In this document: positions 10,422 through 16,492 of the stretch, piece by piece | Numbering within the stretch: the stretch's first letter is position 1 | Layout of the letters: every line of letters starts with the position of its first letter | Virus record (IMG/VR): IMGVR_UViG_3300037247_001786 | Coordinates: 320,001 to 384,000 of that record | DNA length: 64,000 nt | DNA from: a virus | Lineage: Duplodnaviria; Caudoviricetes | Direction: 5' to 3' (one strand) | The notes under the pieces: generated by a model | Told to the model about the DNA's origin: nothing | Database searches by the model: none | The model's input: the letters and a program-made list of their open reading frames with translations, nothing else | Made by a program: the position numbers and the translations under genes

Positions 10422-10724
10422 ATGACGAAGAAAAAGTTAAAAGCTATAACGGTACTCACTATTGCTGCAATTATATTGTTAGTAGTACTGGCCTCCACTG
10501 GAGCTATACTCATATTCTCTTTCCCCCTACTTATTCTATTGGGAACAATTCTCGTAGGCTGGGCCCTTAAGTCAGCGGTTGAATGGTTAATAAAACATAT
10601 CGACTATAAAAAAGTTGCGGACAAAACTGTTGAACATTCCAAAAAAGTAGCAGAGAAGATAAGGTTTAAAGAAGGTAAAAAAATAATTATAGAAAGCATA
10701 GACGAATTAAGGAATAAGAAATGA
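10422..10724 (+). CDS. Hypothetical membrane protein
   Basis: Long N-terminal hydrophobic segment. Confidence 0.55.
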   Translation: MTKKKLKAITVLTIAAIILLVVLASTGAILIFSFPLLILLGTILVGWALKSAVEWLIKHIDYKKVADKTVEHSKKVAEKIRFKEGKKIIIESIDELRNKK

Positions 10725-11356
10725 TGTACGAAGATAGAGTAATACAACTATGTTCTGATTATGCGGCAATAGCTCATATGAAACAGTTAAGAAAAGATGG
10801 AAAAACTCCCTATATATCTCACCCAGGCAGAGTATCTTGCTCTACTGCAACTATTGGTAAATTGGATTTTATAGGAGTCTGTGCATCTTGGCTACATGAC
10901 ACTCCCGAAGATTGTGCCGTTGGAAAACACGGCGATAAAGATTATCCATTTATAATCGAAAATCATACTGATAGATACAAAGATATAAGATTGTTCCTAT
11001 TGGATAACCCAGATATTGAAAAAACTGATGGGCAAAAGATTCTTCAATTGACGATGGAACTTTGTATGTCTCAAGATAAGTCCATTCCGAAGTGGATAAG
11101 AAAAGAACAATATATAGATAACATAGCTGGAGGTTCTGTTGATGCGGCAATTATTAAATATTGCGATAGAATCGATAATCTAACTACTTGTCATATCTTT
11201 TCAAAGAGTGGCTTTGCCTTCTATATAAAAGATACTCAAATGCTTCTGGATAAACTTTCTGGAAAAATTAAAGCGACACGCCCCCTCCTACACCTACACT
11301 TGGAACGCAAGTTAGAAGTAGTAACGAAGACATATGAAGAGATGTATAAAAAATAA
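10721..11356 (+). CDS. HD-domain protein, RelA/SpoT hydrolase (Mesh1/SAH)-like
   Basis: H..Q.RKDGKTPYISHP, WLHDTPED, IKYCDRIDNL. Confidence 0.8.
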   Translation: MMYEDRVIQLCSDYAAIAHMKQLRKDGKTPYISHPGRVSCSTATIGKLDFIGVCASWLHDTPEDCAVGKHGDKDYPFIIENHTDRYKDIRLFLLDNPDIEKTDGQKILQLTMELCMSQDKSIPKWIRKEQYIDNIAGGSVDAAIIKYCDRIDNLTTCHIFSKSGFAFYIKDTQMLLDKLSGKIKATRPLLHLHLERKLEVVTKTYEEMYKK

Positions 11357-11366
11357 TATTTTTATA

Positions 11367-11394
11367 TTGAAAGTGATTTTTAAACAGATATAAT
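11367..11394 (+). promoter_or_regulatory. Sigma70-like promoter upstream of membrane module
   Basis: TTGAAA GTGATTTT...TATAAT. Confidence 0.7.
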
Positions 11395-11451
11395 ACTGTT
11401 TTGATGTTAACCGTATATTTTTATTAAATGTAGTAGAAAGGAAAAACACAG

Positions 11452-12135
11452 ATGAAGAAATTTAAATCGATGTTAGTAGTAGGTATGTTGGCAGTAATGA
11501 GCTTTGCTTTTACCGCCGAAGATGTTCTCGCCAGACGTTCAGGAGGCGGCGGCTTTAAATCATCACCAAGGTCGGCTCCAAGGTCGGCTCCAAGGGTTCG
11601 TACAGCACCAAAGGTTCGTAGGGCACCAAAGGCTACGCCAGCCAAGAAGCGAACAACTCAAAAGAGAACAGCTACGGCTCCTAAAAGAACAGCCGCACAG
11701 CAAAAATCTTTTGAGACAGCAAAAAAGAATGGGACTTCTTTTAAAACAAAGTCCGCGGCTTCGACAGCTTTCAAGCAGAAACATTATGCAAAGTATCCTG
11801 CAAAGTATGCATCGAAACCGGCTACACGACCCGCTCATGTTCCACAGTCAACAAGCGTTGGGGGAGTAAACTATAATGTCTCCTATAATGCTGGCTATGG
11901 AGGTTATGGGTATATGGGAGCAGGAGGCAGATGGATGATGTATGATGCGATGACTGATGTTATTATGTTAAATATGCTGATGTCTCGAAATCATTACATC
12001 GTAGATACCGTCGCTCCAGCACCTGTTGTTCGAGTTCGTAGAGCTAACACAGGCAGAACCATATTTATCGTACTCGGATCTATCGTTGCTGTTATTGTTA
12101 TAGGCAGTATCGTTATCGGTCAATCCCGTCAGTAA
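11452..12135 (+). CDS. Exported, membrane-anchored basic low-complexity protein
   Basis: Signal peptide (..EDVLA|RRSGGGGF), PRSA tandem repeats, YGGYGY tract, C-terminal TM. Confidence 0.7.
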   Translation: MKKFKSMLVVGMLAVMSFAFTAEDVLARRSGGGGFKSSPRSAPRSAPRVRTAPKVRRAPKATPAKKRTTQKRTATAPKRTAAQQKSFETAKKNGTSFKTKSAASTAFKQKHYAKYPAKYASKPATRPAHVPQSTSVGGVNYNVSYNAGYGGYGYMGAGGRWMMYDAMTDVIMLNMLMSRNHYIVDTVAPAPVVRVRRANTGRTIFIVLGSIVAVIVIGSIVIGQSRQ

Positions 12136-12154
12136 AAGTTTTAACCCTCCTTGT

Positions 12155-12193
12155 ATAGTAAAGAGGTGGTCGTTCAGATTGCCTCTTTACTAT
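12155..12193 (+). terminator. 13-bp stem-loop, terminator or processing site
   Basis: ATAGTAAAGAGGT / GCCTCTTTACTAT; weak U-tract. Confidence 0.45.
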
Positions 12194-12222
12194 CTATGTA
12201 TAATTATTAAGGCACATGTTTA

Positions 12223-12897
12223 ATGGAAAAAACAAGTAAAAAATATTGGGATAGTATTAAGGTCGGTAGCATCGTCCAACTGGACGACCAACAAACTCTT
12301 GAATTTCTTATAGAGAAAGGGTTTGAGGGTATAGAACATGGAGCAGATTTTGAAGTAAAACGAATTAAAGATATCTCAGAACAAGATAATCTCGCTATAT
12401 GGAGAATTATTTATATTGAATTCAAAGAGATACTATGGTATCTAGTTATCAAAATGATTGACGGAGAGAATCAATTAAGGATATACTATCAACCAGATGA
12501 TTTCGATTGCGGTAATAGAGAAGATATGATTAATAATTATTCTGAATATCTTTTCAAACATATTGAGGATATGGACAATTGCAATTTAAATGATCTAGAA
12601 TTTGCTGATTCCATAATGGATCATGAATTCGAATATACTTCTGAGGGAGTCTTCTACGGAGCTTCTGTCGAAGATGGTAAAGAGGATTTCGCAACTGTTG
12701 TTGAATACGCTACAGATACAGAATGCGAGAATCCTTATCTCTTGGTTTTGGAATTATGTAATGTCGAAACGATTGAACAATACGATGAAGATGACGATGT
12801 CTGCGGTTCAGAGACCGACATCGATTTTAATAACGGTTTTATAATGTTACTACAAGGTTGCGACGTAAACATAAATGATATAGAAGTTTTAAATTAA
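12223..12897 (+). CDS. Acidic hypothetical protein, possibly DUF4178/YjfK-like
   Basis: IKVGSIVQL start, very acidic, next to PspA; family assignment is inference. Confidence 0.45.
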   Translation: MEKTSKKYWDSIKVGSIVQLDDQQTLEFLIEKGFEGIEHGADFEVKRIKDISEQDNLAIWRIIYIEFKEILWYLVIKMIDGENQLRIYYQPDDFDCGNREDMINNYSEYLFKHIEDMDNCNLNDLEFADSIMDHEFEYTSEGVFYGASVEDGKEDFATVVEYATDTECENPYLLVLELCNVETIEQYDEDDDVCGSETDIDFNNGFIMLLQGCDVNINDIEVLN

Positions 12898-12909
12898 GAG
12901 GCAATTAGC

Positions 12910-13119
12910 ATGACTGGTAAAAGACAAGTACAATATGGAATAACGGCTTTAGCATTTTTTTTCAATACTCTTTTAGGTATTGCGGTAATGATTAAGGGTT
13001 GGGGCGTTCAACCAGAAAGTTACGGATGGATATGGGGAGGTGCTTTTACTACTGCTCTTGTTGTGATGTTTACGACTGACTCGATAAAAAAATTATGCGG
13101 AGTTAAAGACGATGAATAA
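12910..13119 (+). CDS. Small 2-TM membrane protein
   Basis: Two hydrophobic helices; KGWG motif shared with next ORF. Confidence 0.6.
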   Translation: MTGKRQVQYGITALAFFFNTLLGIAVMIKGWGVQPESYGWIWGGAFTTALVVMFTTDSIKKLCGVKDDE

Positions 13120-13345
13120 AGAATATTATTCTGGAACTGAAAGTGAGACAGCGAAAGTAATTTTGGGAGTTGTTCTGTTTCTTTTTTCGATTGTATTTAT
13201 CGTTGTTATGCATTTCGTTATTTTTTACAAGGGGTGGGGTCTATCAGTTGTAAGTTGGCCATGGTTGATATTTTTATGGATAATGGCAGGAATAGTGAAT
13301 ATGGTTAAAGACTGGGCTCATAAAGCAGTAAAAAAAATATTATAA
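13112..13345 (+). CDS. Small 2-TM membrane protein
   Basis: Two hydrophobic helices; KGWG..SWPW. Confidence 0.6.
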   Translation: MNKEYYSGTESETAKVILGVVLFLFSIVFIVVMHFVIFYKGWGLSVVSWPWLIFLWIMAGIVNMVKDWAHKAVKKIL

Positions 13346-13364
13346 ATTTAAAAGGAAAAAAGTT

Positions 13365-14033
13365 ATGAAGATTTTTAGCACAATCAAAAACATCGTTAAG
13401 GGTAAAGCGGCAGAGGCAGATGAGTCTCTCAAAAAATCACAAGCGGTCACTCTTGGTAAACAAGCGATTAACGAGTCGGAGACAAAGATAGATGAACATA
13501 GAAAGCGTATCGGCGATTTCTCCGCTAAGATCAAAGTTCAAGAGAAAAATCTTGGGAATGCAGAAGCAGATGTAAAGAAGTGGACAAACATAGCAACTGC
13601 ACAAGCAAAGAACAATAGCGAGTCAGGAGCGAGAACCGCTCTTACTGAAAAGAATAAAGCTGCGTCAAAGGTAACTAGCTTGAAATCGGAGATAGCTAAG
13701 AATACGACTGTTCTCAATGCCGAAAAGACAAGTCTTCAAAAGTTGATAGATAAGGTTGACCAGGCTAAAAACAACTTTGATAATCTCTCCATTCGCAAAG
13801 AAGGAGCAGAGATGAGAAAAAATCAAACTGGCATCGGCGAAGATGACAGTTGTTTCGACGCCTTGGATGATTTGAAAGATCAAGTTGAAGAGTCGGAGGC
13901 TCAAGCGGAAGCCTATGAAGAAATGTCCGAGGTAGGTAACGAGGCTGCTCAGTTGGAAGCAGAGTACGATTCCGGCAATACCGGCGTAGAAGATGAATTG
14001 ACGAAGTTAATGAATAAAAATAACAAAAAGTAA
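13365..14033 (+). CDS. PspA/IM30 family protein
   Basis: 222 aa all-helical coiled coil; MKIFSTIKNIVKGKA start, A..AL.EK, C-terminal VEDELTKLM. Confidence 0.8.
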   Translation: MKIFSTIKNIVKGKAAEADESLKKSQAVTLGKQAINESETKIDEHRKRIGDFSAKIKVQEKNLGNAEADVKKWTNIATAQAKNNSESGARTALTEKNKAASKVTSLKSEIAKNTTVLNAEKTSLQKLIDKVDQAKNNFDNLSIRKEGAEMRKNQTGIGEDDSCFDALDDLKDQVEESEAQAEAYEEMSEVGNEAAQLEAEYDSGNTGVEDELTKLMNKNNKK

Positions 14034-14057
14034 TTAAATATTTTGTAGGATGATATT

Positions 14058-14201
14058 ATGGAATTTGGTCAATGTGACGATTGCGGGGGAACGATGGTAG
14101 GCGATGGTTATTCTCAAGTATTACATTGTGAGTTTGTTACAGATGACCTGTCGGATCGTGAAGCTGATTCCGGACCCATATTTTGTGGATTTAAAGATTA
14201 A
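14058..14201 (+). CDS. Small Cys-containing protein (47 aa)
   Basis: Manual ORF MEFGQCDDCGGTMVGDGY...HCE...FCGFKD with AGGA RBS. Confidence 0.5.
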   Translation: MEFGQCDDCGGTMVGDGYSQVLHCEFVTDDLSDREADSGPIFCGFKD

Positions 14202-14222
14202 TTTATTTTGTAGGAGAATATT

Positions 14223-14489
14223 ATGCATATTCCAGATGACGGAACACTCGGAGGAAAAGTCCTCTTCGGAGCTATTGTTGCAATAGTTATACTTTGTATT
14301 GATGTCTCAATAACAAATGATATTTATGATTATTGTAAAACTTTTGAGGCTTTTGCGAATGCCCCAGGAATGATACACTTCTTTTCATGGACAGGAATGT
14401 TCTTGGCAGTAGTTAGCGTTGTAGGGGTAATCGTCCAATTAATTTGGGCACTTCTTCTAATAATATTTGCTGCCATCTGCGGCGAATAG
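14223..14489 (+). CDS. Small membrane protein
   Basis: AGGAG RBS, two hydrophobic segments. Confidence 0.6.
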   Translation: MHIPDDGTLGGKVLFGAIVAIVILCIDVSITNDIYDYCKTFEAFANAPGMIHFFSWTGMFLAVVSVVGVIVQLIWALLLIIFAAICGE

Positions 14490-14506
14490 AAAGATATGGT
14501 GATTCT

Positions 14507-15589
14507 ATGTTTAAAGAAATATTAATGAAGAAAAGAATTCTAATATTGACGTTTTTAGTTATTGCAGTCTCAACAACTTTTGGTGAGCCTACAGATACTC
14601 TTCAAATAAAGGTGAAATCTTTTCCTCCTTGCGTCATTATCGAAGACGATGGCACCGTAACAGGCTATGATATTGAAATATGGGAAGCCATCTGTCATGA
14701 GAATAACTGGCAACCCGAATACACGGTCGCCTCCTCTCATAATAATATCTTAAAAGAGTTGGGCGAGAAGAAATTCGATGTTGGTATCGCTGGTTTTACA
14801 AAGACAGAAAGCAGAGAAGAATTAATAGATTTCTCTGATCACTATTTAGATTCTGGTTTAAGAATTCTTACGCTGAAATCTGAACCTGGCATAATAGATA
14901 AGATAGTATCTTTTTGGAACAATATCGATGATACTTTAGCTTTCTATGGCATCTTTTTGATTCTTTTTGCTCATATCGTTTGGGCATTAGAAAGAGATAA
15001 TGACCCCACAAATAATGATGGTAGTTTTGATGATAGTTACTTCGTAGGTATTGCCCAAGCATTATATTATTGCATCGTCACAGCTTCTACAGTCGGATTC
15101 GGAGACTTCACCTGTAAGAAAGCAAGAGGTAAAATATTTACTGTAGTCCTTATCTTTTCAGGTCTCATAGGTTGGAGTAATTTGACGGCTGTTTTATCAT
15201 CGTCTTATACTATTGAGAACCTTTCAGCGATACAGTCCGTTGAAGACTTAAAGGGCAAAACTATCTTGACTCAAGATGGTCCGTCTCTAAAAGTTCTTCA
15301 AGGCATTGGGGCTAATATCAAGTTAGTACCGACAATAGACCAAGCTGTTGATTGGCTTATGTTAGAGAGAGGCGATGCGGTAGTATACGACTCTCCTGTT
15401 ATTTTAGAATATGCAAAGAAGTACCCAGACAAAGTAGAGGTAGTTGGTTACCTGTTTGATAAGCAGTATTATGGTTTCGCTCTTCAAGAGGGAAGTCCGT
15501 TAAGACAAGACGTAAATAAAGCTCTTTTGAAGATTAGAGAGAGTGGTAAATATGATAGTATCCATTTGAAATGGTTTAAGAAGGAGTAG
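14507..15589 (+). CDS. GluR0-like ionotropic receptor: split family-3 solute-binding domain plus K+ channel pore
   Basis: Signal peptide; S1 (FPP..GYDIEIW..DVGIAGFT.T..RE..IDFS..Y); M1; pore helix and filter TASTVGFGD; M2; S2 (SVEDLKGK..DAVVYD..YYGFA..GSPLR..VNKALL.IRESGKY..I..KWF). Start moved from 14444 to ATG 14507. Confidence 0.9.
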   Translation: MFKEILMKKRILILTFLVIAVSTTFGEPTDTLQIKVKSFPPCVIIEDDGTVTGYDIEIWEAICHENNWQPEYTVASSHNNILKELGEKKFDVGIAGFTKTESREELIDFSDHYLDSGLRILTLKSEPGIIDKIVSFWNNIDDTLAFYGIFLILFAHIVWALERDNDPTNNDGSFDDSYFVGIAQALYYCIVTASTVGFGDFTCKKARGKIFTVVLIFSGLIGWSNLTAVLSSSYTIENLSAIQSVEDLKGKTILTQDGPSLKVLQGIGANIKLVPTIDQAVDWLMLERGDAVVYDSPVILEYAKKYPDKVEVVGYLFDKQYYGFALQEGSPLRQDVNKALLKIRESGKYDSIHLKWFKKE

Positions 15590-15592
15590 GTA

Positions 15593-15970
15593 ATGTTAAA
15601 TTTTGATATAGTTCTCGCAAAAGATGTTAAAACAATTGGCTTTCTGGTTTCATATGGTTATCATTACGTTCACTATGTTCCTCTCAGTAAATTGTATTTA
15701 TCGCCTACGTCTGTGATGTTCAAAGATGAGTATCATATTCAAGAAAAGACTTGGTGTGAGAAAAAATATATTTACTGGGACAGACCTTATGACGAAACAA
15801 AGGTTGAAGTTTTTACAAGTTTAACCATTGAGGAAGTCTCTGAAGTCCCAGAGTGGTTAAATAAAACGCCAGAAAAAGCAGAAAAGGAAATAGCGGATTA
15901 TAAAGAAAAACTGCGTAAAAAAACTTGGTTCTATAAAATGTGTCATTGTTTAGGTAAGAAGGAAGAATAA
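15593..15970 (+). CDS. Hypothetical protein
   Basis: AGGAG RBS. Confidence 0.55.
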   Translation: MLNFDIVLAKDVKTIGFLVSYGYHYVHYVPLSKLYLSPTSVMFKDEYHIQEKTWCEKKYIYWDRPYDETKVEVFTSLTIEEVSEVPEWLNKTPEKAEKEIADYKEKLRKKTWFYKMCHCLGKKEE

Positions 15971-15971
15971 T

Positions 15972-16184
15972 ATGTTAGCATGGTTATGTTTGTTAGGTTG
16001 GTTGTTACTGTTCACAGTAGTAACGATAGTATTAGGAGCTTGTCAAGACTGGAGTAACGGTTGGACATCGGCATGGACATCCCTGCCAAGTAAGCCTACT
16101 AATTGGATAGCAACAAATATATTTATTGTTGCGATATGGATCATATCAATAATCCTCAAAGTTGCCATTTGGGGTTGGTTGTAA
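15972..16184 (+). CDS. Small membrane protein
   Basis: Two TM segments. Confidence 0.55.
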   Translation: MLAWLCLLGWLLLFTVVTIVLGACQDWSNGWTSAWTSLPSKPTNWIATNIFIVAIWIISIILKVAIWGWL

Positions 16185-16231
16185 AAGAAGAAAAATAACT
16201 GAAAATTTTTTAACAAAAAGGAAAAAGTAAA

Positions 16232-16492
16232 ATGTACAATTTCGACAATGCAGGCATCAATAAGTTATTAATAATTTTAGCGGCGGTAGTTGTTCTTACC
16301 CTCTTACTTTCAGAAGTAGTTGGTTTTATAATTGTGGTATCTACTCTATGGGCACTCAGCGGTCTGGCTGGTTGGGGTATAGGCAGAATGCAAAACAAAA
16401 TAGATCCCAGTGAAAATCTCTCCAAGGATAGCGTGTTCTATGATCATATCGCTAGGGGACCTATCGCTATATTTCAATATTTGCGAGAATAA
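16232..16492 (+). CDS. Small membrane protein
   Basis: Long hydrophobic segment. Confidence 0.55.
   Translation: MYNFDNAGINKLLIILAAVVVLTLLLSEVVGFIIVVSTLWALSGLAGWGIGRMQNKIDPSENLSKDSVFYDHIARGPIAIFQYLRE

Follow-up and report, generated by a model that had tools for sequence, protein, structure and literature searches.

A phage cassette of PspA and a GluR0-type K+ channel with parallels to bacterial PspA operons

The locus

The window considered here is a stretch of 64,000 nucleotides, bases 320,001-384,000 of a virus record that is 460,978 bp long and has direct repeats at its termini (IMG/VR record IMGVR_UViG_3300037247_001786; Duplodnaviria, Caudoviricetes), and its subject is a cassette in which PspA, a membrane-binding protein of the ESCRT-III superfamily, is encoded together with a ligand-gated K+ channel of the GluR0 type. 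The + strand carries nearly all genes of the window, and the entire region is contained in one sequencing run only, a marine-sediment metagenome. Between positions 11367 and 16523 lie 11 + strand open reading frames (ORFs), bounded by two copies of a recurrent phage promoter. Four of them recur in the order g1, g2, PspA, K+ channel on at least 14 phage contigs with GC contents of 30-53%. In the window, these are g1 (11452-12135, +), g2 (12223-12897, +), PspA/IM30 (13365-14033, +) and the channel (14507-15589, +, with an alternative ATG at 14525). The intergenic gaps within the unit range from -8 to 47 nt, with the exception of the g1-g2 spacer of 87 nt. All ORFs listed in a preliminary description of this DNA, which was made from the letters of the sequence, exist on the + strand, and the PspA/IM30 protein and the GluR0-type K+ channel named there are both genuine. 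Genome-wide, each is present as a single copy, with one PspA and one match to Ion_trans_2, which is the channel.

PspA and the channel

PspA matches PF04012 over residues 3-219 (profile positions 2-218) with 59.3 bits against a cut-off of 33.9, and scores 58.7 bits in the genome-wide search. Its sequence matches in the PDB are Vipp1 and PspA chains (E = 1.5e-7 to 4e-5) and Snf7 (E = 0.0026). Fourteen relatives with 53-69% identity were recovered, all of them metagenomic; GenBank phages (INPHARED) yielded no hit, either to a near-identity search or to tblastn, and IMG/VR gave none when PspA or the channel was used as a single query sequence, the relatives surfacing only when alignments were used as queries. 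The IMG/VR scan with the PspA alignment returned two loci, both already in the set. In profile-profile comparisons with hhalign, for which the bacterial family alignments of 5-21 members were assembled here, phage PspA is linked to the YjfJ family with a probability of 98%, and this is the sole significant link of its kind among the cassette families. The sequence does not place phage PspA nearer to YjfJ than to classical PspA; its profile scores E. coli PspA with 41.8 bits vs 26.7 bits for YjfJ.

The channel follows the plan of the prokaryotic ionotropic glutamate receptors (iGluRs). An SBP_bac_3 domain at residues 37-358 is split by an Ion_trans_2 domain at residues 151-231, and weaker matches are found to Lig_chan-Glu_bd and Lig_chan, the iGluR families. 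The predicted protein starts with a signal peptide and continues through S1, M1-P-M2 and S2; it stops right after S2, with no further transmembrane (TM) segment. The best PDB match, 2pyy, is a structure of the ligand-binding domain from a bacterial homologue of the iGluRs; AMPA receptors align with the channel over S1, the pore and S2. The selectivity filter reads STVGFGD in the window, and the filter T-x-S-T-V-G-[YF]-G-D is invariant across 11 phage homologues. Equally invariant in 11 channel sequences are R103 and D295, which we take to be the residues that contact the alpha-carboxylate and alpha-amino groups in the iGluR ligand site. The predicted protein thus combines GluR0 architecture with an intact K+ filter and the conserved Arg and Asp of amino-acid binding, and from these features we infer gating by an amino acid and conductance of K+. 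It shares with Synechocystis GluR0 and other prokaryotic iGluRs the S1-M1-P-M2-S2 layout, the missing third TM segment, the K+ filter and the ligand-binding Arg and Asp; unlike GluR0, the window genome and its three closest relatives have Phe for Tyr in the filter (TVGFGD).

A second difference from GluR0 concerns the gene neighbourhood, since the phage-encoded channel is always found in a PspA cassette. All four relatives of the channel found in IMG/VR lie inside the cassette (4/4), whereas a scan of species-representative genomes located GluR0-like channels of full length at 29 cellular loci, not one of which (0/29) has PspA, g1, g2 or a CesT-like gene, a further cassette component of distant phages that is described below, within 5 kb. 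Within the reach of these searches, only phages combine GluR0 with PspA, while a K+ channel of one kind or another accompanies PspA in bacteria as well. Phages are themselves variable in this respect: the gene after PspA in L018 (related contigs and loci carry L numbers) is a Kv-like channel (Ion_trans, 88.8 bits), and in L013 a Kv-like channel lies 2 kb downstream. The type of channel is swapped non-orthologously, GluR0-like or Kv-like in phages and RCK-type in bacteria, so that the idea of a ligand-gated channel as a replacement stands in this form: a channel for a periplasmic ligand occupies the place of the RCK-type one.

In L006 (241-2029), the channel is 93% identical to that of the window and the adjoining PspA just 64%, a mismatch that points to recombination inside the cassette.

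A two-part transmembrane unit

The first two genes of the core encode a basic and an acidic protein. g1 (227 aa, pI 11.3) begins with a signal-like segment, which is followed by a Gly/Ser/Arg-rich linker, a conserved extracytoplasmic domain of about 100 aa that is rich in Met and aromatic residues and contains GGYGY, and a C-terminal TM anchor. It is without a Pfam match, and in the ESM Atlas it matches only unnamed viral clusters. A profile search recovered 84 relatives, many of them on contigs of 170-550 kb; when cellular genome contigs were scanned with the g1 alignment as a profile, no relative emerged. g2 (224 aa, pI 4.1) is an acidic, cytoplasmic, beta-rich protein without TM segments, for which an exhaustive profile search yielded 322 relatives.

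The relation between g1 and g2 is revealed by natural gene fusions. Among the 150 best g2 relatives, 20 are fusions of a g1 domain, a TM segment and a g2 domain, and these include all 17 proteins of at least 400 aa. In the fusion proteins, an N-terminal match to the g1 domain (E = 1e-5 to 5e-67) is followed by one TM segment and then by the g2 domain. It follows that g1 and g2 are halves of one transmembrane protein, and the order of the fused parts sets its topology, with the g1 domain outside and the g2 domain inside. In the predicted unit, g1 supplies the outer domain and the TM segment, and g2 the cytoplasmic domain. A fusion also occurs on L129 (5966-8518), a contig from a bacterial metagenome-assembled genome, where an eight-TM DUF350 gene is directly followed by a 505-aa g1-TM-g2 fusion and no PspA is found nearby; here the g1/g2 unit has a cellular form that does without PspA.

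The fold of g2 provides a connection to bacterial proteins. In the ESM Atlas, g2 compares with DUF2491 clusters at 0.91 by features (208/256 shared) and at 0.65/0.65 by structural TM-score. The AlphaFold2 model of g2 is of moderate quality (pLDDT 62); its top match among 550,129 Swiss-Prot models is E. coli YjfK (probability 1.00, E = 3.6e-3, TM-score 0.42), the second is Rv2597, a DUF4178 protein, and DUF4178 and DUF2491 predominate among its matches to AFDB clusters. No match was returned by Foldseek against the PDB. Pfam gave none at E <= 0.1 for g2 and none for ten sampled g2 relatives, and the DUF2491 and DUF4178 profiles found nothing at E <= 10 across the phage genome. On the strength of the Atlas comparison and the model, g2 appears to have the DUF2491/DUF4178 (YjfK-like) fold.

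Co-conservation across phages

The preliminary description had taken the genes between the two promoters for a module, and a gene-neighbourhood comparison bears out that its core is co-conserved. Seven contigs of the near clade, with PspA identities of 53-66%, were examined. In all of them PspA is followed directly by the channel and then by an orthologue of g9, a gene of unassigned family that is described below, and g1 and g2 are present wherever the contig extends upstream. In L003, the flanks are rearranged, with other genes on both sides, and the block is intact.

More distant contexts (three look-ups and eight IMG/VR loci) were mapped with custom hidden Markov models. Six huge phages, L008/L015 (548 kb), L009 (502 kb), L017 (499 kb), L010, L014 (298 kb) and L016 (351 kb), have the order g1, g2, an acidic CesT-like protein of about 150 aa, PspA and GluR0-like channel. 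The distant loci show protein identities to the window of 23-59%, GC contents of 30-53% and unrelated flanking genes, and this recurrence argues that g1, g2, PspA and K+ channel are passed on together. The CesT-like gene lies directly 5' of PspA in L008-L010, L013, L014, L016 and L017, and in L010 and L013 a true eight-TM DUF350 gene is located directly upstream of g1. The model of the CesT-like protein (pLDDT 83.5) is built on an alpha-beta3-alpha-beta2-alpha plan, as are YbjN, CesT and YjfI proteins; it matches YbjN, AmyR, ExsC, CesT and BacA/PA14_16140 (TM-score 0.68/0.73) in the PDB and the YjfI/DUF2170 cluster in the Atlas (0.71/0.79). Overall, the constant core consists of g1, g2, PspA and a K+ channel; a protein of the CesT/YjfI fold also belongs to it, but is missing from the window genome.

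A sceptical reading would have it that there is no module at all, and that unrelated accessory genes have become neighbours by chance and are retained through the synteny of related phages. The near-clade genomes are indeed collinear for more than 10 kb on both sides of the cassette, and the small genes g6, g7 and g10 of the window are clearly add-ons. This explanation is nevertheless highly improbable and already contradicted by the comparative data: the same gene order recurs between unrelated flanks in genomes of very different GC content, g1 and g2 have natural fusions, channels of another type stand at the same site, and the composition of the cassette parallels that of a bacterial operon, Zooshikella L065.

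Parallels with bacterial PspA operons

Ravi et al. 2024 (PMC11237479) described CesT/Tir-PspA dyads that are accompanied by a K+ channel for intracellular ligands, DUF350, DUF1190, DUF2491 and an ATP-grasp ligase; they form the third group in that study, and E. coli yjfIJKLMC is of this kind. An operon of this composition surfaced in the channel scan: Zooshikella L065 encodes DUF2170, PspA, an Ion_trans_2+TrkA_N channel, DUF2491, DUF350, DUF1190 and GSP_synth. The bacterial yjfJ-type pspA operon to which the locus had been likened is thus real, both in the literature and among the loci recovered here.

The phage cassettes and the bacterial yjfIJKLM-type operon have several features in common. 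In both, PspA is directly followed by a K+ channel, RCK-type in Zooshikella and GluR0- or Kv-type in phages, and both include a cytoplasmic protein with a DUF2491/DUF4178-like fold and an exported envelope protein. The distant phages additionally share with the bacterial operon a YjfI/CesT-fold protein directly 5' of PspA and a DUF350 membrane protein. The fold of g2, the CesT/YjfI-fold gene and the occasional DUF350 of distant phages together indicate that the cassette mirrors the bacterial operon. There are also differences. The bacterial channel is RCK-type as opposed to the GluR0-type channel for an extracellular ligand, or the Kv-like one, of the phages; the phage cassette has no polyamine or ATP-grasp enzyme, and its gene order differs. 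Unlike for the bacterial partners, there is no Pfam model that recognises g1 or g2, and the window cassette has small two-TM proteins with a KGWG motif and is without the CesT-like gene and DUF350. Of the DUF350-, DUF1190- and DUF4178-like partners that the preliminary description named for bacterial loci, only the last has a counterpart in the window, in the fold of g2, which resembles DUF2491/DUF4178; the KGWG proteins are not DUF350 proteins, and g1 is not detectably DUF1190. An assignment of g1 to DUF1190 (YjfM) was considered and rejected, with no match to PF06693. Comparison of the phage families with single E. coli YjfK, YjfI and YjfM sequences by hhalign gave no significant link (E = 0.09 for g1 with YjfM). 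The parallels with the bacterial operon are parallels of fold and architecture, not of membership in sequence families.

On balance, it is reasonably probable that the cassette is a membrane and ion-homeostasis system of phages, the viral counterpart of the bacterial CesT/Tir-PspA operons with K+ channel, DUF2491, DUF350 and DUF1190. A number of observations weigh against this interpretation. With hhalign, the g2 family aligns with the YjfK family over 134 collinear columns at a non-significant E = 0.24, and the assignment of g2 to DUF2491 therefore rests on similarity of fold and language-model features, with a mediocre model (pLDDT 62). Comparisons of g1 with the YjfM family (E = 0.04 over 24 columns) and of the CesT-like protein with the YjfI/DUF2170 family (E = 0.073) are also non-significant, matches to the corresponding Pfam profiles are absent, and neither a CesT-like gene nor DUF350 was found anywhere in the genome of the window phage. 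Because the near-clade genomes are collinear beyond the cassette, their agreement carries little independent weight. L008 shares its promoter box with the window and is thus not fully independent of it, and since several of the seemingly independent phages share the box, they belong to one broad lineage. In L019 and L020, finally, g1 and g2 come after a divergent PspA (34.1 and 19 bits), with no channel within 7 kb, so that the channel is not obligatory.

Part of this picture has a precedent. A preprint by Yuan and Chen (bioRxiv 10.64898/2026.10.24.761521, October 2026) counts 189 pspA genes in 184 huge phages and notes membrane proteins among their neighbours. In the available portion of that text, potassium, ion channels and glutamate are not mentioned, and there is no description of the g1/g2 unit, of the exchange of channel types, of the partner with the CesT fold or of the link to yjf-type operons; the occurrence of pspA in huge phages as such was already on record. 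Judging from the same portion, one of the classes of PspA neighbours in the preprint is very probably the GluR0-type channel. A literature search found no paper on a phage GluR0.

Promoters and transcription of the unit

The unit was described as delimited by promoters, and this is correct. P1 (11367..11394, +; TTGAAAGTGATTT...TATAAT) marks its start, and P2 (16496..16523, +), a promoter of the same class, its nominal end. The recurrent form of the promoter is TTGAAAGTG-N-TATAAT. Seven matches to TTGAAA-N16/17-TAYAAT occur in the window, all on the + strand, vs 0.31 expected, and an extended box, TTGAAAGTG(A/T)TT, is common to all seven. Genome-wide there are 16 forward sites with the full motif, none of which (0/16) lies inside an ATG-initiated ORF of at least 60 aa, though such ORFs make up 81% of the strand. 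The two promoters that bound the unit are more than chance would provide. The box is found 60-85 nt 5' of the g1 orthologue in L002, L004, L007 and L008, and L003 has it there too, with one base changed; in L002 the next copy of the promoter lies directly 3' of the g9 orthologue. The predicted start of the unit is accordingly a conserved sigma-70-like phage promoter, and the promoter boxes, the short gaps and the single strand are indirect signs that the cassette may be co-transcribed from P1. No intrinsic terminator was found before 16496, and transcription may therefore run on into the unit or beyond its end.

The spacer between g1 and g2 contains a strong predicted hairpin (12152..12196, +; dG ~ -24 kcal/mol). 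Hairpins of 16-17 bp with dG of -24 to -27 kcal/mol occupy this spacer in the window, in L002 (6741-6778) and in L007 (1554-1593). Their sequences differ among the three phages while the shape is alike, and a T-run follows 3' only in L007. The hairpin may be an attenuator or an element of mRNA stability, and could in this way set the ratio of g1 to g2 expression.

Ten of the 16 forward boxes (TTGAAAGTG...TATAAT) are found within 42 kb, at positions 9985-51895 of the window (genome 329,985-371,895), and this clustering suggests one temporal class of accessory genes.

The cassette is surrounded by accessory genes, and its promoter class is sigma-70-like and looks early; this has a bearing on its role in infection, and would suit a device for superinfection exclusion or competition between phages. 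PspA would seal injection lesions and the channel would shift the membrane potential, and the altered envelope and potential would block DNA injection or infection by phages that arrive later. Every part of the cassette acts at the envelope, with g1 exposed outside the cytoplasm, and, like a mobile fitness module, the cassette passes from one phage to another that is unrelated. Against this, PADLOC recognised no known defence or exclusion family in the cassette, and in bacteria the same gene set is a chromosomal operon of housekeeping type. Superinfection exclusion is thus an unlikely function, albeit one that the data do not separate from general membrane maintenance.

Proposed role in infection

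The retention of the cassette in many unrelated giant phages indicates that these viruses probably manage the membrane and the ion balance of the host during infection. For a membrane and ion-homeostasis system, the following sequence of events can be envisaged. After infection, the cassette would be expressed as a single transcript. PspA would coat and seal stressed patches of the host inner membrane and thereby reduce the leakage of ions and protons, while the channel, gated by a periplasmic amino acid, would allow K+ to move down the membrane potential; this K+ path could help to maintain the K+ pool, turgor and membrane potential of the host through the long cycle of a giant phage. The preliminary description likewise proposed a phage system that would protect the proton-motive force of the infected cell. 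The g1/g2 unit would report the state of the envelope to PspA, or couple the two, at the cytoplasmic face. The lineage of the window may have lost the CesT/YjfI-like partner of PspA, with the small membrane proteins g3 and g4 taking its place.

The physiology of related cellular proteins is compatible with such a scheme. The PspA-like BacB of P. aeruginosa, beside which the YjfI-family protein BacA is encoded, increases upon osmotic shock (PMC10948618), and Synechocystis GluR0 mediates K+ uptake and buffers cell volume after KCl upshock (PMC13099474); by analogy, the published properties of GluR0 and BacB would fit the proposed role.

The sealing of damaged membranes could also be put to use against the host. 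PspA is known to limit leakage where a membrane is damaged, and in a counter-defence function it would patch, and the channel would repolarise, a membrane that has been hit by depolarising or perforating effectors of abortive infection. The phage-borne nature of the cassette and its wide distribution among huge phages would agree with this. No anti-defence gene was recognised adjoining the cassette, however, and the bacterial operons with the same parts favour a general physiological role, which makes a dedicated counter-defence function distinctly unlikely; the two views overlap, and counter-defence is compatible with membrane and ion homeostasis.

A bolder version of the homeostasis model, which we regard as tentative and rather doubtful, is that the split g1/g2 sensor and the amino-acid-gated K+ channel are physically joined with an ESCRT-III-type PspA polymer in an assembly that would give the virus control over host membrane potential, K+ and membrane repair, with the combination of GluR0 and PspA being a viral invention that is absent from cells.

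PspA-type ESCRT-III proteins and their yjf-type partners (DUF2491, DUF350, DUF2170 and K+ channels) are widespread, and the function of the operon is not known. The compact phage version, with its four-gene core, a g1-g2 fusion that fixes the topology and interchangeable channels, would offer a good experimental handle on it, and would bring with it a virus-encoded homologue of the ionotropic glutamate receptors. If the homeostasis model is true, ion and membrane homeostasis joins the host-takeover functions of huge phages, and the cassette provides a concrete test of a link between PspA and K+ flux.

Small and accessory genes

The remaining ORFs of the unit are less constant. g3 (12910-13119, +) and g4 (13112-13345, +), which overlap by 8 nt, encode small, lineage-specific proteins; each is predicted to have two TM segments, and the two are paralogues with a common M-[IY]-KGWG loop. 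g3 is present in L002, L003 and L007, and absent from L004, L005 and every distant phage; the number of g3/g4 copies in the near clade ranges from none (L004, L005) to two. The two genes occupy the site that is held by the CesT-like gene in distant phages. Their interpretation as half-DUF350 units was rejected, with no match to PF03994 and E = 0.27 in hhalign against the YjfL family. Small membrane proteins are also encoded beside PspA-type proteins in the PspBC and LiaI-LiaH systems, where they are possible recruiters to the membrane; g3 and g4 have no sequence relationship to them. LiaI serves as a membrane anchor for LiaH, and by analogy g3 and g4 may be membrane anchors for PspA.

Two further small ORFs are inserted between PspA and the channel and are restricted to the window genome, without counterparts in relatives: g6 (14058-14201, +), an acidic 47-aa ORF with four Cys residues, and g7 (14223-14489, +), a two-TM ORF of 88 aa. 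Near-identical ribosome-site regions (TTTTGTAGGA-N-ATATTATG) precede both of them (14035-14060 and 14200-14225). The pair looks as if two small mobile ORFs had been inserted together.

Downstream of the channel lies g9 (15593-15970, +), a soluble protein of 125 aa that is confined to the near clade, where it follows the channel in 7/7 contigs; the preliminary description did not single it out. A P-E-W motif is invariant among the orthologues, the C-terminal tail is basic, and the ESM Atlas gave no usable fold or family match for it (its own model there has a pLDDT of 0.39). g10 (15972-16184, +), a two-TM ORF of 70 aa, is accessory and otherwise present only in L006. g11 (16232-16492, +), a membrane protein of 86 aa, is kept in four relatives in varying positions, in L002 behind the next promoter. 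The inclusion of all small genes in the module, as in the preliminary description, is too broad: g6 and g7 are without counterpart in relatives, and g10 and g11 are not constant.

With g3, g4, g7, g10 and g11, the cassette contains several small TM proteins of holin size, and the triggering of holins depends on the energisation of the membrane. A gated K+ conductance and PspA could conceivably set the potential at which holins trigger and so tune the length of the infection cycle. Such control of lysis timing is very unlikely: neither an endolysin or spanin nor a recognisable holin family is encoded in the unit, conservation within the cassette is lowest for the small TM genes, and the promoter class is without a link to late genes in the data.

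The surroundings of the cassette hold two further genes. A TnpB/IS605 OrfB (Cas12f-like) gene is found a few kb 3' of the cassette in L005 (5690-6841). Directly 5' of P1, the window encodes an HD-domain protein (10721-11356) with a faint HD_4 match in relatives; it has the same position in L002, L004 and L007, and in L003 the gene sits elsewhere.

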